Positions 17,109 through 24,621 of a DNA stretch of 64,000 nt are shown one piece after another; positions within the stretch are counted from its first letter, which is position 1, and each line of letters starts with the position of its first letter. Source of the stretch: Alphaproteobacteria bacterium. Lineage in GTDB: Bacteria > Pseudomonadota > Alphaproteobacteria > UBA828. Location of the stretch: the NCBI GenBank assembly GCA_963422645.2, contig CAXXVO010000007.1, positions 608,001 to 672,000 on the forward strand, given 5' to 3'. The position numbers and the translations under genes were made by a program. Below the pieces are notes generated by a model. That model worked only from the letters and a program-made list of their open reading frames with translations, was not told the origin of the DNA and did no database searches.

Positions 17109-19090
17109 ATGACCCATCGCCAAGCCTTCACGGCCACCGTTGGACACGCCGAACAAGAAGCGCGGGGCAGGCGCTGCTGCCCGGCGGGCCGCGTCCTCCG
17201 CGCGATACTGCGACTCACCGTCCCGGCCCTGGTTGCGGTGGCGATGCTCCTCGGCGCCGGCGCGCCGGTCCGTGCGTTCCCCGGACTCGACCAACCGAGT
17301 GTGAGCATCGCCGCAGAGCACGGTTCCTACGGCTTCGGGATCGACGATGTCATCTTCAAGCTAAGACGCGCGGGTCCGGCGGACGACGCGGTCTCGGTTC
17401 GGGTTTCGCTCGCCCAGGCCCACCTTTACCTGCCGACCGACCGGCTCAACGCGGTCGTGCGGTTCCGGGCGGGCAAGAGGGATGCGGAGTTCCGCATCCG
17501 GGCGCGGCAGTTCAACGGTCCGGCGACGCAATCGGGCGCGCTGAGCGCGACGCTGGTCGCCGCGTTCGGCTACACGGTGGGGCACCCGGACAGCGCGCGA
17601 ACCCGCCTGGTGGTCAAGAATCCGGCGATCACGGTCCGCCCGGAGCAGGCTTCCTACACCGTCGAACCCGACGACGGGGCGGTTAGGGTGACGTTCGTGG
17701 CCCGCACCGAGGGCGAGTTGCCCCGGCCCGGCAAGGCATTCTCCCTCGCGGTGTCCTCGAAAGCCGCATCCGACGAGACGGCAGCGCGCCGCGTAGCCAG
17801 GGGCGTGTCGCAAACGGTCGAATTCAAGCCGCGCGACTTCGTTTCCACGGACGGAAAGTGGGAAGCGAGCAGGACGGTCTCCTTCTCGACGGCCGAAACC
17901 GCCGAGGGCCTGGAAGTGATGTTCAAGCGCGCGGCGTCGACTCCGGAGCGAATCCGGCCGCGCAATTCCGACGGCAGCACCTGCACGGACGATGTCTGCA
18001 TGGTGCCGGTGTTCATGGCCCAAAGCGAGGAACCGACGCTCACCATCGCGGCCGGGCAGGAGAGCTACGGTTTCGGGATCGACACCGTGGTCTTCACCGT
18101 CACACGCAACGAAACCGCCGAAGGGGAGATCGGCGGCGCGGTGACACTCTCGCAGGACGAAAATTTCGTGACTAGCGTTTCCCGGACGAACTTCACCATT
18201 CCAGCAAACGAGACGAGCACGGACGTCGAGCTGTTCCGGTCGCTCTTCGACGGCGACGCAGCGCAGTCCGGCGATCTGACCGCGACCATCGAGGCAGGGG
18301 ATGGATACGCGGTCGGCACGCCCGGCTCGGCAACGACCCGGATTGTCGTGGCGGACCCGGCAGTCACGGTGCGGGCGGAGCGGGCCGCCTACCGCTTCGT
18401 CGAAGGCGGTGCCGAGGCAACCGTCGCGGTCGTCGCGCGCACCGCGCCCGGCGTGCCCCCGCCCGGCAGCAGGTTCCCGATACTGGTCTTTTCGGACCCC
18501 ACATCGGGCACGGCCACTGTTGGCGACGACTACGAAGAACTGCTGACCAATGTCGTCTTCGGCCCCGACGACTTCACCGCCACGGGCGGCGTTTGGGAGG
18601 CGCGCAAAGAGGTCTCGCTAACGATCGTCGACGACGACGTGACGGAAGCCGACGAGACCGTCGAGTTGCGGCTCCGGTCCACTCCTGATTTTACGCCGCA
18701 GAGGATCCGGCCGCGCAACGCCGACGGAAGCGCGTGCGCCGATGACGTCTGCACGGTACCGGTCACGATCGCCGCCAACGATGGACCGCCGGTGGCCCGG
18801 ATCGAGATCACACCGGTTCCACCGGCGGCAAGCGCCGACCACGGCCCCTACTACATCAAGGACGACTTCCTCGCCCTGCCGGACGACACGGTGCACGGAA
18901 GGGGCGCCACGCTGACCTTCACGCTCAACCTCGACACCGAGGTGACCGTGACCGGCACGCCCGAGCTGGTGCTCGATATCTTCGATCGCGAGCGCCGGGC
19001 GCGCTACACCGGTGGCTCGGGCTCGCGGCAACTGACCTTCACCTGGACGGTGGAGAAGGGCGACAACGACCCGGACGGGCTGGAGTTCAG
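17109..19090 (+). pseudogene. large surface protein (Calx-beta/autotransporter), N-terminal part, interrupted by IS110
   Basis: Signal-peptide-like segment and two internal repeats; frame is restored when 19091-22310 is removed. Confidence 0.85.
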
Positions 19091-19238
19091 ATGCCGTAAT
19101 GGGGCTCGGCACCAATCGGCACCGTTGAAGCCTGTCGCGATGGTAGCGAATCGGGTGTCGTTGCCCTTACACGCTCAGCGTGTTCACGGGGTCTTGCCGC
19201 AAGGCGCGCCCCAATTCCTCGAAGGAAAGGGCAACGAC

Positions 19239-20282
19239 ATGAACGTCTATATCGGGCTGGATGTATCGCTGGCAAGCACGTCAATCTGCGTCATCGGCGA
19301 GAAGGGGAAGATCGTTACCGAGGCGCAGGTAGCCAGCACGCCTGAAGCACTCGTTGCGTTCATGGGCAAGCTGGAGCACGAGATCGCCGCGATCGGTCTT
19401 GAGGCCGGTCCCTTGTCCCACTGGTTGCACAAGGGTCTGACCGGCGCCGGCTTCGAGGCCGTGCTGATGGAGACCCGGCGGGTGAAGGCCGCGCTGAAGG
19501 CGATGCCGATCAAGACGGATCGCCGGGATGCGGAGGGCATCGCACGGCTGCTGCAGATGGGCTGGTTCCGGCCGGTGCACTGCAAGTCGGTGTCATCGCA
19601 GGAGATGCGCGCGCTGCTGACCTCGCGCAAGTCGGTGCTGAACGCGCTCACCAATATGGAGCTGTCACTGCGCGGCGTGTTGCGCAACTTCGGCCTGAAG
19701 CTGGGCCAGGTCTCCAAGGGCCGCTACGAGGCCCGCGTCCGGGAATTGATCGCCGGCAACGCGATGCTGGAAGCCGCGGCCGAACCGATCTTGCGCGCGC
19801 GGGCGGCTCTGCGCCGCGAGCTGGCCGGCCTGGAGAAGCTGGTCCGTAATCTGGCCAGGGAAGATCCGGTGTGCCGGCTGCTCATGACCATGCCCGGCGT
19901 CGGCCACGTCATAGCGCTGACCTTCATGTCCGCGATCGACGATCCCGGGCGCTTCCGAAGATCGAAGGATGTCGGCCCCTGGGTGGGGCTGACGCCGGGA
20001 CGGGCCCAATCCGGCGAGCGAGATATCGTCGGCGCCATCACGAAGTGTGGCGACGCAGGTCTGCGCTCGGCGCTCTATCAGGCTGCCACGGTGATGCTGA
20101 ACCGCACCACCGGCCCGAACTGGTTGAAGGCCTGGGCGCAGCGTCTGACGAAGCTCCGGGGCAAGAAGCGTGCAACGGTTGCCTTGGCCCGGCGCATCGG
20201 CGTGGTGCTCCATCGGATGTGGCGGGACGGCGCCGGGTTCCGGTTTACGCGCGAGGAGGCGATGGCGCTGCAGACGGCATAG
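19239..20282 (+). CDS. IS110 family DEDD recombinase/transposase
   Basis: YIGLDVS, GLEAG, KTDRRDA, QSG catalytic serine and ALARR motifs. Confidence 0.95.
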   Translation: MNVYIGLDVSLASTSICVIGEKGKIVTEAQVASTPEALVAFMGKLEHEIAAIGLEAGPLSHWLHKGLTGAGFEAVLMETRRVKAALKAMPIKTDRRDAEGIARLLQMGWFRPVHCKSVSSQEMRALLTSRKSVLNALTNMELSLRGVLRNFGLKLGQVSKGRYEARVRELIAGNAMLEAAAEPILRARAALRRELAGLEKLVRNLAREDPVCRLLMTMPGVGHVIALTFMSAIDDPGRFRRSKDVGPWVGLTPGRAQSGERDIVGAITKCGDAGLRSALYQAATVMLNRTTGPNWLKAWAQRLTKLRGKKRATVALARRIGVVLHRMWRDGAGFRFTREEAMALQTA

Positions 20283-20344
20283 GCGCGGCTGCATCCCACC
20301 GACAGTCAATTAGGAGAGGAGGAAAGAGTCGCGCCTGAAGGTGG

Positions 20345-20530
20345 CGATCCACCGGTGTCCCCTCGCCGGGACGCGGTTCCCGAAGATGCGCGTTTTGAAC
20401 CCTGTTCGCCGAACCGCCCTGTTGCGGTCGAGCACGTAGATCAGATCGGCACTCGGGAATCGTCTTGGACCAGGCATGACGTTGGCGGCCGCTGCGCCGA
20501 CCACGGACGGAAGCGAGAGCCTGGCGGCGG
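20345..20530 (+). ncRNA. candidate bridge/seek RNA of the IS1111 element (second copy at about 21927-22112)
   Basis: Four short segments match the target and donor flanks (see findings); boundaries are approximate. Confidence 0.6.
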
Positions 20531-20728
20531 ACACATCCGGGATCGTAGTTCCTTCTCTGTGCCGCGCCGGGCGAGTCAGTTAGCAGCTTTTGCCAAGGTA
20601 ACCACCTATGTTGACCATGCCTGGGACGACGATCGGCCGCAGGCGATGGTTCTTCATGTTCAAGAGACCGTGCCAAGCCGGAAGATCGTGAATATCTGTG
20701 TTTGACATCAACTGCCCCATTACGGAAG

Positions 20729-22310
20729 CGAATCGGGTGTCGTTGCCCTTACACGCTCAGCGTGTTCACGGGGTCTTGCCGCAAGGCGCGCCCCAATTCC
20801 TCGAAGGAAAGGGCAACGACATGAACGTCTATATCGGGCTGGATGTATCGCTGGCAAGCACGTCAATCTGCGTCATCGGCGAGAAGGGGAAGATCGTTAC
20901 CGAGGCGCAGGTAGCCAGCACGCCTGAAGCACTCGTTGCGTTCATGGGCAAGCTGGAGCACGAGATCGCCGCGATCGGTCTTGAGGCCGGTCCCTTGTCC
21001 CACTGGTTGCACAAGGGTCTGACCGGCGCCGGCTTCGAGGCCGTGCTGATGGAGACCCGGCGGGTGAAGGCCGCGCTGAAGGCGATGCCGATCAAGACGG
21101 ATCGCCGGGATGCGGAGGGCATCGCACGGCTGCTGCAGATGGGCTGGTTCCGGCCGGTGCACTGCAAGTCGGTGTCATCGCAGGAGATGCGCGCGCTGCT
21201 GACCTCGCGCAAGTCGGTGCTGAACGCGCTCACCAATATGGAGCTGTCACTGCGCGGCGTGTTGCGCAACTTCGGCCTGAAGCTGGGCCAGGTCTCCAAG
21301 GGCCGCTACGAGGCCCGCGTCCGGGAATTGATCGCCGGCAACGCGATGCTGGAAGCCGCGGCCGAACCGATCTTGCGCGCGCGGGCGGCTCTGCGCCGCG
21401 AGCTGGCCGGCCTGGAGAAGCTGGTCCGTAATCTGGCCAGGGAAGATCCGGTGTGCCGGCTGCTCATGACCATGCCCGGCGTCGGCCACGTCATAGCGCT
21501 GACCTTCATGTCCGCGATCGACGATCCCGGGCGCTTCCGAAGATCGAAGGATGTCGGCCCCTGGGTGGGGCTGACGCCGGGACGGGCCCAATCCGGCGAG
21601 CGAGATATCGTCGGCGCCATCACGAAGTGTGGCGACGCAGGTCTGCGCTCGGCGCTCTATCAGGCTGCCACGGTGATGCTGAACCGCACCACCGGCCCGA
21701 ACTGGTTGAAGGCCTGGGCGCAGCGTCTGACGAAGCTCCGGGGCAAGAAGCGTGCAACGGTTGCCTTGGCCCGGCGCATCGGCGTGGTGCTCCATCGGAT
21801 GTGGCGGGACGGCGCCGGGTTCCGGTTTACGCGCGAGGAGGCGATGGCGCTGCAGACGGCATAGGCGCGGCTGCATCCCACCGACAGTCAATTAGGAGAG
21901 GAGGAAAGAGTCGCGCCTGAAGGTGGCGATCCACCGGTGTCCCCTCGCCGGGACGCGGTTCCCGAAGATGCGCGTTTTGAACCCTGTTCGCCGAACCGCC
22001 CTGTTGCGGTCGAGCACGTAGATCAGATCGGCACTCGGGAATCGTCTTGGACCAGGCATGACGTTGGCGGCCGCTGCGCCGACCACGGACGGAAGCGAGA
22101 GCCTGGCGGCGGACACATCCGGGATCGTAGTTCCTTCTCTGTGCCGCGCCGGGCGAGTCAGTTAGCAGCTTTTGCCAAGGTAACCACCTATGTTGACCAT
22201 GCCTGGGACGACGATCGGCCGCAGGCGATGGTTCTTCATGTTCAAGAGACCGTGCCAAGCCGGAAGATCGTGAATATCTGTGTTTGACATCAACTGCCCC
22301 ATTACGGAAG
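20729..22310 (+). mobile_element. second tandem IS110 copy lacking the first 56 bp of the left end
   Basis: 1582-bp direct repeat of 19147-20728. Confidence 0.9.
20821..21864 (+). CDS. IS110 family recombinase/transposase (copy 2)
   Basis: Protein identical to 19239-20282. Confidence 0.95.
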   Translation: MNVYIGLDVSLASTSICVIGEKGKIVTEAQVASTPEALVAFMGKLEHEIAAIGLEAGPLSHWLHKGLTGAGFEAVLMETRRVKAALKAMPIKTDRRDAEGIARLLQMGWFRPVHCKSVSSQEMRALLTSRKSVLNALTNMELSLRGVLRNFGLKLGQVSKGRYEARVRELIAGNAMLEAAAEPILRARAALRRELAGLEKLVRNLAREDPVCRLLMTMPGVGHVIALTFMSAIDDPGRFRRSKDVGPWVGLTPGRAQSGERDIVGAITKCGDAGLRSALYQAATVMLNRTTGPNWLKAWAQRLTKLRGKKRATVALARRIGVVLHRMWRDGAGFRFTREEAMALQTA

Positions 22311-24621
22311 GTTCCTCGACCTCAACGGCGGCACCATCCGCGACACCCAGGGCAATAACTTCGTGCCTGAGACCATCCCGGCGCAGCAATTCACCAAGCA
22401 CCGGGTGCGCGGCGGGTTGCACGCCATGCGGCTCGAGGTGTCCGGCTCGGCGCGCGAGGGCGAGCCCTTCGAGATCCGGGTAGTCCGCAACGGCGGCTTC
22501 GAGGAGGTGGCGGTGGCCGGGGTTGGCGTGGCCGACAGTGCCCTGCCGCACGAAAAGCCTTCGTTCCACTACGCGGTGAACGGGCCCGGCCGTTACCAGT
22601 TCGACTTCGATCACGGGGCGGCGAACGAGCCCGGCGTGCGGGTCTCGACGCGCACCGTGACGCCGATCGGGGACGGCGTTGCCGACGCGTCGCGCACACT
22701 GACGATACGGCTGACCGGGACCGACGCGGGCTTCCATCTGACGCCCCCCCTTGGCGACTATCGGGCCTGGTACCTGGCCGAAGGGCCGCTGGAGGTCACG
22801 GTGCCGGTGATCGACACCGGGCTGTCGCTGGGCGAGGCGGGTTTCCGGGTCCACGGGGCCTCGGTACGCGAGGCACCGGGTGCGAAGCTCGCCTTCAAGG
22901 TCAGCCTGTCGCCCCACAGCGAAGCACCGGTGACGGTGGACTACCGGACCGGAGAAGACCCGCCCAACGGGTCCAAGGCGGTCGCGGGGGAAGACTATGT
23001 GGCCACGAGCGGCACGCTGACCTTCGAGGCCGGCGAGACCCTGAAGACCGTCGAGGTGGAGGTGCTCGCCGACGATCATGACGAGGGCTTCGAGACCATG
23101 CGGCTTTTCCTGTCGAACGCGCAGGGCGCGCGCATCGATGGTGCTTCGGGGCTCGGCGTCATCAAGAATACCGGACCGATCCCGAAGGCTTGGCTGGGGC
23201 GCTTCGGGCGCACGGTGGCCGAGCAGGTGCTAGGCGCGGTCGAGAGCCGGGTGCGGGCAACGCGGCAGCCCGGCATCGAGATGACGCTCGCCGGCCAACG
23301 GGTCGGTGGCCAAGCACCGCAGGAAGCTTCACCCGCGCAACGCGATTCAGCCTGGCAAGAGCACGCCGGCCCCACGTCCCTGGCGTCGCGCGGCGTGACG
23401 CAGGGCGACCTGCTGAGCGGCACCTCCTTCGCAGTCACCGCGGAAACCGGGCAGCACGGGTATGCCACCCTCTGGGGACGCGCCGCCGTTTCCCGCTTCG
23501 ACGGCCGCGAGGGCGACCTCACGCTCGACGGCGAGGTCTCGAGCGCCATGATCGGCGTCGACTGGGCCCGTGAGAACTGGACCGCCGGTCTGATCGTCTC
23601 GCGCAGCGCCGGCGATGGCGGCTACGTCGGCCACAGCAAGGGCCGGGTGGAAGCCACGTTGACGGGCCTCTATCCTTGGGGGCGCCTTGCGCTCTCCGAG
23701 CGGGTGGACGCATGGGGCGCCGCCGGTTACGGCACGGGCGAGCTTTCCGTGACGCCGAAGAAGCCGGGGACGGACGAGGACGGCGCCACGATCCGCACCG
23801 ATCTGGACCTGCGCATGGCGGCGGCCGGGCTACGCGGAAGCCTGCTGGACGGCACCGAGGACGGCCTCACTCTGGCCGCCAAGACCGACGCGCTGATCGT
23901 GCAGACCGCGTCCGACGCGGGCCGCGGGACGGACGGCGGCAACCTGGCTGCAGCCCGGGCCACGGTAACCCGGCTGCGTCTCGGCCTAGAAGGGTCGCAG
24001 CCGATACCGCTCGAGGGCGGTGCGAGCCTGACTCCCTCCGTCGAGATCGGCGTGCGTCATGACGGCGGCGATGCCGAGACCGGGTTCGGCATCAACCTCG
24101 GCGGCGGGTTCGCCTGGTCCGATCCGGAGAGCGGGCTGGTCGCGGAGCTGCGCGGACATGCGCTTCTCACTCACGAAACAGAGGGCTTCCGCGAGCGCGG
24201 CGTTTCCGCCTCGCTCACCTGGGACCCGAAGCCGTCCTCGGCGCTCGGCCCGACGGCGACGCTGACCCAGACGGTCGGCGACCCGGCCTCTGGCGGTGCT
24301 GATGCGTTGCTGGCGCAGGGGGCGCTGACGGGCCTCGCGGCGCAGTCCGGCTCAGAGTTGGACGGTGAGGGCGACCTGCAGCATCGCCGGCTGGAAGCAA
24401 GGTTCGGCTATGGCTTCCCGGCCTGGGGCGGCCGCTTCGCGTCGGTTCCCGAGGTCGGCCTCGGCCTCTCCGACACCGGCCGGGAGTACATCCTGGGCTG
24501 GCGATTGGCGAGCGACGGGCCCGGCGCGCTCCAGCTGTCGACAGAGGCGCGTCGAATCGAGAGCAAGGGCAGCGGCCCGGTGGAGCACCGCATCGGCGCC
24601 CGCCTCTCGGCCCGGTGGTAG
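22311..24621 (+). pseudogene. Calx-beta plus autotransporter beta-barrel, C-terminal part of the interrupted gene
   Basis: VTVDYRT...AGEDYVATSGTLTFEAGET Calx-beta motif; AWLGRFGRTVA...GVRHDGGDAETG barrel; terminal W. Confidence 0.85.

Follow-up and report, generated by a model that had tools for sequence, protein, structure and literature searches.

The 64,000-nucleotide (nt) stretch of an alphaproteobacterial genome analysed here (the window; contig CAXXVO010000007.1 of assembly GCA_963422645.2, positions 608,001 to 672,000 of the forward strand) contains, at positions 19091-20728, an insertion sequence (IS) of the IS110 family and the IS1111 type, denoted IS-A. The subject of this work is the non-coding region that follows its transposase gene and that very probably encodes the guide RNA of the element. 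The transposase consists of a DEDD_Tnp_IS110 domain (Pfam PF01548, residues 5-150) and a Transposase_20, or Tnp, domain (PF02371, residues 212-295), scores 248 bits against the NCBIfam profile NF033542 ("IS110 family RNA-guided transposase") at a cut-off of 140, and is matched by the PDB chains of the IS621 and ISCro4 transposases with E ~1e-12. The non-coding sequence comprises 446 nt on the 3' side of the gene (20283-20728) versus 148 nt on the 5' side (19091-19238), and both ends of the element carry subterminal inverted repeats (Table 1); a long 3' non-coding region and subterminal inverted repeats of 7-17 bp are the hallmarks of IS1111-type elements (PMC11187229, PMC11208160). The boundaries of IS-A are common to 55 relatives whose ends were located, and the dinucleotide AG, the core, is present at both junctions of IS-A, of these relatives and of two further elements of the same genome, IS-B and IS-C. 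In the window, the first 56 nt of the left end occur once (19091-19146) and are followed by two identical 1582-nt units (19147-20728 and 20729-22310); the left junction reads ...GGAGTTCAG/ATGCCGTAAT at 19090/19091, and the right junction ...CCATTACGGAAG/GTTCCTCG at 22310/22311. Because of the tandem units, the RNA region is present twice, at 20340-20550 and at 21922-22132. A preliminary description of this DNA, made from its letters, had derived from the two junctions an empty target and the junction of a circular form of the element; both were deduced correctly, and neither form was seen directly for IS-A.

Four short segments of the 3' non-coding region match the target and the ends of IS-A. 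As the preliminary description had indicated, GAACC (20397-20401), GTAGATCAG (20436-20444), GGCAT (20473-20477) and ACGGAAG (20507-20513) are found on the + strand, and the second of these is identical to the left flank GGAGTTCAG (19082-19090) at 7/9 letters. The interpretation of these segments as parts of a guide RNA is upheld, with two changes of extent. The left-target guide (LTG) is shorter than had been proposed: five letters and the core, AGATC-AG, stand, and the first two letters of the segment, GT, are conserved scaffold, not guide. The right-target guide (RTG) is longer, TTTGAAC plus CC; the right-donor guide (RDG) and the left-donor guide (LDG), which correspond to the two ends of the element, retain their extent. 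The preferred target, previously given as approximately TAGATC-AG-GTTC, is now predicted to be AGATC-AG-GTTCAAA. All four segments recurred in that order in 1/20000 mononucleotide shuffles of the 446-nt region, a test that was devised post hoc. The simplest alternative is that the matches are due to chance and that the region is conserved in some other capacity, such as a 3' untranslated region, protein-binding DNA or a small open reading frame (ORF), for example the one at 20355-20705 (+). Such a view can draw on the shortness of the single segments (5-9 nt), on the recurrence of ACGGAAG alone in 627/20000 shuffles, on the ORFs that overlap the region on both strands and on the lack of expression support from RNA sequencing runs; the comparative data described in the following paragraphs speak against it from several independent directions.

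A scan of genome contigs for the transposase yielded 80 loci with 67-93% protein identity. Both ends were located in 55 of these, the remaining 25, at contig edges or with diverged ends, being left out; together with six copies from the same genome, they make up 61 elements with 49 distinct non-coding regions. Guides were read at fixed scaffold anchors, and after removal of five elements in which an anchor failed and six with too short a flank, the test sample comprised 50 elements with 33 distinct guide sets. Of the five left-guide letters that precede the core, 4.03 on average match the flank of the element to which they belong, compared to 1.32 for the flanks of other elements, and the best 7-letter match of the right guide averages 5.82/7 on own flanks versus 3.83 on those of others. 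When guides and flanks were permuted across the 33 guide sets, 0/10000 permutations reached the observed total, a result that is hard to reconcile with fortuitous matching. Agreement with the left flank is found at positions -1 to -5 (32, 30, 25, 20 and 26 of the 33 guide sets, respectively) and in only 5-7/33 at positions -6 to -9, where the RNA letters belong to the conserved scaffold; because these outer positions rarely agree, we assign five letters plus AG to the left guide, not nine. The donor guides vary along with their partners as well: the LDG equals the last seven right-end letters in 46/49 relatives, in the variants ACGGAAG, ACCGAAG, ACAGAAG and ACGAAAG, and the first five left-end letters are complemented exactly by the RDG in 36/49, with wobble compatibility in 4 more. 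Judging from these comparisons, programmability appears to be realized in nature, with the guides changing together with the target among relatives.

The same region possesses a conserved RNA secondary structure. The consensus fold, which was computed with the four guide segments held unpaired, consists of a closing stem (P1), an arm formed by the stem P2, an internal loop and the distal hairpin P3, and a further hairpin, P4 (Table 1), and under this constraint the same architecture was obtained for 12 diverse members singly, for all 49 sequences jointly and for four sub-clades separately. In the underlying alignment (A1), standard pairs account for 91.2% of 1849 cells, compared to 29.5-39.9% after displacement of the partners by 1-3 columns, and the covariation score is 0.228, compared to 0.154 in shuffles, of which 0/500 reach the observed value. 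Compensatory changes on both sides occur in 16/39 pairs, and the alignment is interrupted by scattered one- and two-letter gaps that are incompatible with a conserved reading frame; both features run counter to chance conservation, the latter to its small-ORF version in particular. The preliminary description had regarded guide segments situated outside internal loops as evidence against a bridge RNA. In the consensus structure, all four guides are unpaired: the target guides occupy the internal loop, and the RDG and LDG are single-stranded, one on each side of P4, in a three-way, multi-branch junction, not in an internal loop. Folds of single sequences, on either strand, are not better than those of shuffles (z = -0.38 and +0.27) and were not used as evidence because the unconstrained fold pairs guides with each other; unconstrained RNAalifold recovers only 23 pairs, a part of the structure.

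Both the structure and the geometry of the guides bear on the strand. Transcription of the RNA from the - strand, antisense to the orientation adopted here, would be compatible with the similar stability of the single-sequence folds (-88.5 versus -92.8 kcal/mol for the + strand, neither beating shuffles) and with the ambiguity of guide matches, which in principle fit a reading on either strand. Wobble pairs, by contrast, favor the + strand, on which 91.2% of cells pair versus 85.9% on the - strand, a modest excess that agrees with the strand deduced from guide geometry: reading the + strand places the core at the 3' ends of the guides and the top-strand match 5' of the bottom-strand match, as in the IS1111 seekRNAs mapped by RNA sequencing (PMC11187229). 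We regard an antisense origin as extremely improbable and read the RNA from the + strand throughout. On this strand, CACG, six letters and AG follow one another in the 3' strands of both modules (target, 20434-20446, GCACG-UAGAUC-AG; donor, 20502-20515, CCACG-GACGGA-AG), a resemblance at the sequence level that suggests two copies of one recombinase-binding module.

A sister element in the same genome, IS-B, provides a natural experiment in guide replacement. The 6 copies of IS-B share 85% identity with IS-A in the first 1444 nt, are flanked by ...GATTGGAG/IS/TGGGCCCCTGGGG and have the right end ...CCCCATTACAGAAG. Within 20355-20535, the two elements differ at 13/15 target-guide positions versus 25/166 other RNA positions (Fisher p = 1.8e-8), a concentration of differences in the guides that again contradicts the chance interpretation. 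The right-target segment is TTTTGAACCC in IS-A and TGGGCCCACT in IS-B, where GGGCCCACT is the exact reverse complement, at 9/9 letters, of the element's own AG+TGGGCCC (core plus right flank), and the left-target segment is GTAGATCAG versus GCTGTGGAG. The LDG of IS-B, ACAGAAG (ACGGAAG in IS-A), equals its own right end TTACAGAAG and tracks the one-letter difference between the right ends of the two elements, and GGCAT and the left end ATGCC are both identical in the two. The similarity between IS-A and IS-B ends near 20535 and reappears only ~35 nt before the right terminus; the stop near 20535 thus marks the 3' limit of the conserved module. Moreover, four unoccupied IS-B targets with a single AG, located in a genome repeat (contig C5:89523, with the sequence GATTGGAG/TGGGCCCC; C5:90772(-); C7:230782; and C3:172848), prove the boundaries of IS-B and the absence of target duplication. 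The IS-B copies themselves sit in a repeated, partly palindromic element, ...TGACCCC.GATTGGAG/TGGGCCCCTGGGG.CGGACA, and in two of them (C8:417734 and C3:192895) the right end diverges ~20 nt before its expected end.

A covariance model (R1) built from alignment A1 and applied to the whole genome detects 11 places. Three are the IS-A copies (179.8 bits), six the IS-B copies (174.3 bits), and the remaining two, C14:10160-10366 and C16:13318-13524, score 52.8 bits (E = 1.4e-10). Immediately upstream of each of these two lies a transposase gene of a third, more distant kind (64% DNA identity); the element so defined, IS-C, was absent from the training set of the model. The junctions of IS-C are ...GGGTTCAAAAAG/ATGGGGTATTCGG and ...CCCGAATAGAGAAG/GGGGGTCCGG, its flanks GGGTTCAAAAAG/.../GGGGGTCC and its own ends ATGGGG...ATAGAGAAG. 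Its left-target guide, TCAAAA-AG, is identical to its own left flank; its right-target guide, GGCCCCCC, is the complement of the core G plus GGGGG and then of CC, with one letter skipped; its right-donor guide, CCCATCT, is the complement of AG+ATGGG; and its left-donor guide, AGAGA-AG, equals its own right end. Because its segments fit its own sites and ends, all four guides of IS-C are retuned to the partners of this element. This out-of-sample agreement is again at odds with chance, which, together with the permutation test, the distribution of IS-A/IS-B differences and the compensatory changes, leaves the attribution of the matches to accident with hardly any credibility. Both IS-C copies are inserted within a transposase gene of the IS4/IS5 family (Pfam DUF4096), and ISEc21 has likewise been reported to target a conserved part of the transposase gene of another IS (Siddiquee et al.; PMC11187229).

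With respect to the insertion sites of IS-A, the preliminary description had held that other sites unlike the guides would refute its reading; the sites of the C16 and C5 copies do resemble the guides. A second full, 100% identical copy, at C16:189297-190932, has the flanks ...GCGTAGATCAGATCAGATCAG/IS/GTTCAAATGCGC, and its site, AGATC-AG/.../GTTCAAATG, matches 5/5 LTG and 7/7 RTG positions, being exactly AGATC-AG-GTTCAAA. A truncated copy, at C5:45722-45990, which ends after 269 nt, has the left flank ...GATAGACCAG and, with AGACC-AG, matches 4/5 LTG positions. No free site with one or no mismatch to the predicted target exists in the genome, and 13 have two mismatches. A solitary right-end fragment at C9:177375-177448(-) is 85% identical to the right end of IS-A and finishes with ...CCCCATTACGGAAG. 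Given three 100% identical copies, the intact ORF and the full-length match to the RNA model, homology suggests that IS-A is, as was first proposed, intact and programmable. In the window, IS-A is inserted into a single long gene that encodes a Calx-beta repeat protein (17109-19090 and 22311-24621), and the frame of this gene is continuous over the deduced empty site. The host frame is also open through the left end of IS-A, in frame with the transposase gene (ORF 17109-20282), an arrangement that may be due to chance in DNA of 67% G+C.

Table 1. Features of IS-A and of the related elements IS-B and IS-C. Positions refer to the window unless a contig is named.
Feature	Position	Strand	Remarks
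IS-A complete unit, IS110-family element of IS1111 type	19091..20728	+	1638 bp including right-hand AG core
Left target flank AGTTC + core AG	19084..19090	+	4/5 LTG positions matched, plus core
Right target flank GTTCCTC	22311..22317	+	4/7 RTG positions matched
Left subterminal inverted repeat CCGTAATGGGGC	19094..19105	+	12 bp, starts 3 nt inside element end
Right subterminal inverted repeat GCCCCATTACGG	20714..20725	+	12 bp, 3 nt from element end
Transposase / bridge recombinase gene, 347 aa	19239..20282	+	Pfam, NCBIfam and PDB matches
Bridge/seek RNA (candidate), structured core	~20355..20535	+	Covariance-model match 20340-20550
P1 closing stem	20360-20370 with 20520-20530	+	80.5% of cells paired, 2/9 pairs compensatory
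P2 stem below target loop	20373-20390 with 20447-20463	+	Helix 3: 93.0% paired, 5/12 compensatory
Internal loop	5' strand 20391-20403 (RTG), 3' strand 20436-20446 (LTG)	+	Consensus structure
RTG, TTTGAAC + CC opposite core	20394..20402	+	Complementary to target top strand G+GTTCAAA
P3 distal hairpin of target arm	20404-20413 with 20427-20435	+	93.5% paired, 7/8 compensatory
LTG, AGATC + core AG	20438..20444	+	Top-strand sense, pairs with bottom strand (predicted)
RDG, GGCAT	20473..20477	+	Complement of first left-end letters ATGCC
P4 hairpin between donor guides	20481-20489 with 20496-20504	+	99.7% paired, 2/8 compensatory
LDG, ACGGA + core AG	20507..20513	+	Same sense as last right-end letters
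TTGACA, candidate -35 box	20702..20707	+	17 nt before GAAG/AT; completed only across joined ends
Second identical 1582-nt unit	20729..22310	+	Without first 56 nt of left end; second transposase and RNA gene
Second bridge/seek RNA core	21937..22117	+	Model match 21922-22132
IS-B copies	C18:202920, C11:61109, C8:523877, C8:526953(-), C8:417734, C3:192895(-)		
IS-C copies	C14:8965-10422 and C16 (offset +3158)		Loci L013, L104, L105

Thus, we consider it very likely that the segment 20355-20535 (+) is the gene of the bridge RNA (seekRNA) of the IS1111-type element 19091-20728, and we propose the following mode of action for its product, which would be expressed, bound by the recombinase and employed to direct the recombination reaction. 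The stem P1 would open into a three-way junction from which the arm P2 with its internal loop would extend. In the 5' strand of this loop, TTTGAAC plus CC would base-pair with the target's top strand on the right-hand side of the AG core; in the 3' strand, AGATC plus AG would base-pair with the target's bottom strand on the left-hand side of the core and over the core itself. GGCAT and ACGGA plus AG, on the two sides of P4, would pair in the same manner with the joined ends of the circle, ...TTACGGA-AG-ATGCC.... By analogy with IS621 and with the IS1111 elements that have been studied in the laboratory, recombinase dimers assembled on the two RNA modules would juxtapose the circle junction with the target, and strand exchange at AG would lead to insertion in one orientation without target duplication. 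The RNA might be co-transcribed with the transposase gene and, after circle formation, might also be transcribed from a promoter assembled across the joined ends. A candidate for such a promoter is provided by TTGAC, which occurs within the last 34 nt of the right end in 49/49 distinct relatives and, as a perfect TTGACA in IS-A, would supply the -35 box (Table 1); the candidate -10 element across the joined ends has only a 3/6 match.

The mechanism outlined above assigns a guiding role to the donor half of the RNA, and in this respect it has a more conservative competitor. Only the target-binding half (~20373-20463) might guide the reaction, in the manner of a short seekRNA, with the protein recognizing the ends of the element through the subterminal inverted repeats and with GGCAT and ACGGAAG conserved for other reasons, such as processing or protein binding. 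For ISEc11, a target-binding RNA of 70-100 nt has been reported to be sufficient for transposition (PMC11187229); in the present case, a guiding role of the donor half is proposed from co-variation. The small size of the RDG (4-5 nt, devoid of pairing to the core in IS-A) and the location of the donor segments outside any simple internal loop fit this alternative as well. A purely auxiliary role of these segments does not, however, account for the fact that the LDG follows the right end through four variants among the relatives and a fifth in IS-C (AGAGAAG), nor for the replacement of GGCAT by GTAT in 3 relatives with the left end ATACC and by CCCATCT in IS-C, with the left end ATGGG. Furthermore, both modules are laid out alike, with a 5' guide, a hairpin, CACG, six letters and AG. 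Restriction of guidance to the target half accordingly seems quite unlikely to us, and a bispecific RNA with two guiding modules is the interpretation that we retain.

Several observations, in addition to the sufficiency of the short ISEc11 RNA, weigh against this interpretation. The site in the window, AGTTC-AG-GTTCCTC, matches the guides only in part (4/5 on the left, 4/7 on the right), and we consider it a second-best site for this reason. The letters facing the core are CC in IS-A versus CT in 19/23 guide sets of relatives, the outermost letter of the short (4-5 nt) RDG is unpaired in 9/49 relatives, and P1 is the weakest helix, with 80.5% of its cells paired. In a scan of 18900-22500 with 4227 Rfam families at E up to 10, 0 matches were obtained, the presence of a bridge-RNA family among these not being established, and when R1 was applied with filters off to IS4321 (plasmid locus L106, 25% protein identity), the best score was a meaningless 4.3 bits (E = 0.2). 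Neither DNA form predicted by the reaction was recovered for IS-A: the circle junction (right end, AG and left end, with two IUPAC letters) had 0 matches in metagenome contigs, and among 20 relatives, four of which had short partial matches, there was no uninterrupted orthologue of the interrupted locus to represent the empty site. Finally, a scan of 19000-20800 for sigma-70-type promoters and intrinsic terminators detected none in the integrated element, and in the four RNA sequencing runs only 0.07-0.08 of the sampled words of the stretch were present, which lends no support to expression.

The remaining sequencing data bear on the distribution of the element. Part of the stretch is contained in 20/24 listed rows of sequencing runs; the runs X1, X4 and X6 are represented by assembled contigs only, X21 by no reads, and joints, starts or ends are found in none of them. 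The loose ends seen in X1 and X6 correspond to the sequences that flank the C16 copy, but these runs may be the source of the assembly and thus do not constitute independent support. Run X4, which bears the same species label and comes from another study, contains in the interval 18950-20760 an IS-A variant with 8 single-letter differences that departs from IS-A after 20546, and it does not cover 18950-19132; the strain seems to possess a related element but not the insertion in the window.

The partial tandem in the window calls for a separate explanation. At the join between the two units, ...TTACGGAAG/CGAATCGG at 20728/20729 (right-hand letters CGAATC), the right end meets the AG at 19145-19146, inside the left end. 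A guided origin of this join was considered and rejected, given that its surroundings match the guides, by eye, at 1/5 positions on the left and ~0/7 on the right; the junction had 0 matches in metagenome contigs. The tandem may have arisen by unequal exchange between sister chromosomes, by an aberrant circle that re-entered through homologous recombination, or by insertion followed by the loss of a 56-nt repeat, or it may be an assembly error. That the recombinase itself acted at a non-guided AG, either in an unequal sister exchange or by producing an aberrant 1582-bp circle that re-entered by homologous recombination, is in our view improbable. Were this the case, bridge recombinases of the IS1111 type would be capable, as a side reaction, of assembling dimeric elements with two RNA genes independently of the guides, and the tandem, along with the CC that replaces CT across from the core and the 4/5 and 4/7 match of the site, would bear on the natural fidelity of these systems.

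Comparison with characterized systems places the RNA of IS-A among the seekRNAs of IS1111-type elements. As in ISEc11, ISPa11, ISKpn4 and ISPst6 (Siddiquee et al. 2024; PMC11187229), it is located in the long non-coding region that follows the transposase gene; the match to the top strand lies 5' of the match to the bottom strand, the reverse of the order in IS110-type elements; and subterminal inverted repeats are present. The longer form of those seekRNAs, ~145-170 nt, would correspond to the ~180-nt core in IS-A, and natural retargeting among close relatives is common to both sets. Unlike these RNAs, to which the sequence of the IS-A clade is unrelated (as far as the comparison of IS4321 with R1 goes), the RNA of IS-A and its relatives displays co-variation with the donor ends, whereas the role of the long form is left open in that study. 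With IS621 and ISCro4 (Durrant et al. 2024, PMC11208160; Hiraizumi et al. 2026, PMC13626964), IS-A shares a recombinase composed of DEDD/RuvC and Tnp domains, a dinucleotide core at both boundaries and a bispecific RNA with a target and a donor module, each comprising one guide in the sense of the left half plus the core and one complementary to the right half. IS-A departs from those systems in its core, which is AG where theirs is CT, in an RNA encoded at the right end and not at the left, in the inverse order of the two guides of a module, in its long subterminal inverted repeats (12 bp), and in donor guides that reside in a three-way junction instead of an internal loop. For the last of these features, Durrant et al. 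have noted that the donor-binding letters lie in a multi-loop in many IS1111 orthologues (PMC11208160). A further parallel is provided by the predicted bridge RNAs of ISCARN28, ISAzs32 and ISPa11, which covariance models place in the right end and which have donor letters in a multi-loop, their predicted loops being complementary to target and donor over 8-14 nt (PMC11208160, Fig. 6 and Extended Data Fig. 10). Since bridge RNAs have been predicted for 93.0% of IS1111 elements (PMC11208160), the existence of such an RNA in IS-A will not surprise the specialist, and the IS-A clade, or an ISfinder entry identical to IS-A, may itself be among the elements for which an RNA has already been predicted.

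The present analysis adds a well-documented natural example to the RNA-guided recombinases of the IS110/IS1111 group and leaves the known mechanism unchanged. One genome houses three related elements, IS-A, IS-B and IS-C, each equipped with its own set of four guide segments and each inserted in a different class of target, namely sites in genes, a repeated element and a transposase gene of the IS4/IS5 family, respectively. In the case of IS-A and IS-B, which are 85% identical, retargeting is accounted for by 13/15 guide letters. The comparisons also yield rules for the clade, with left guides of 5 letters plus AG, right guides of 7-8 letters plus the complement of the core, and donor guides in a three-way junction. 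These elements could offer a starting point for testing IS1111-type systems, which have been studied less than IS621.

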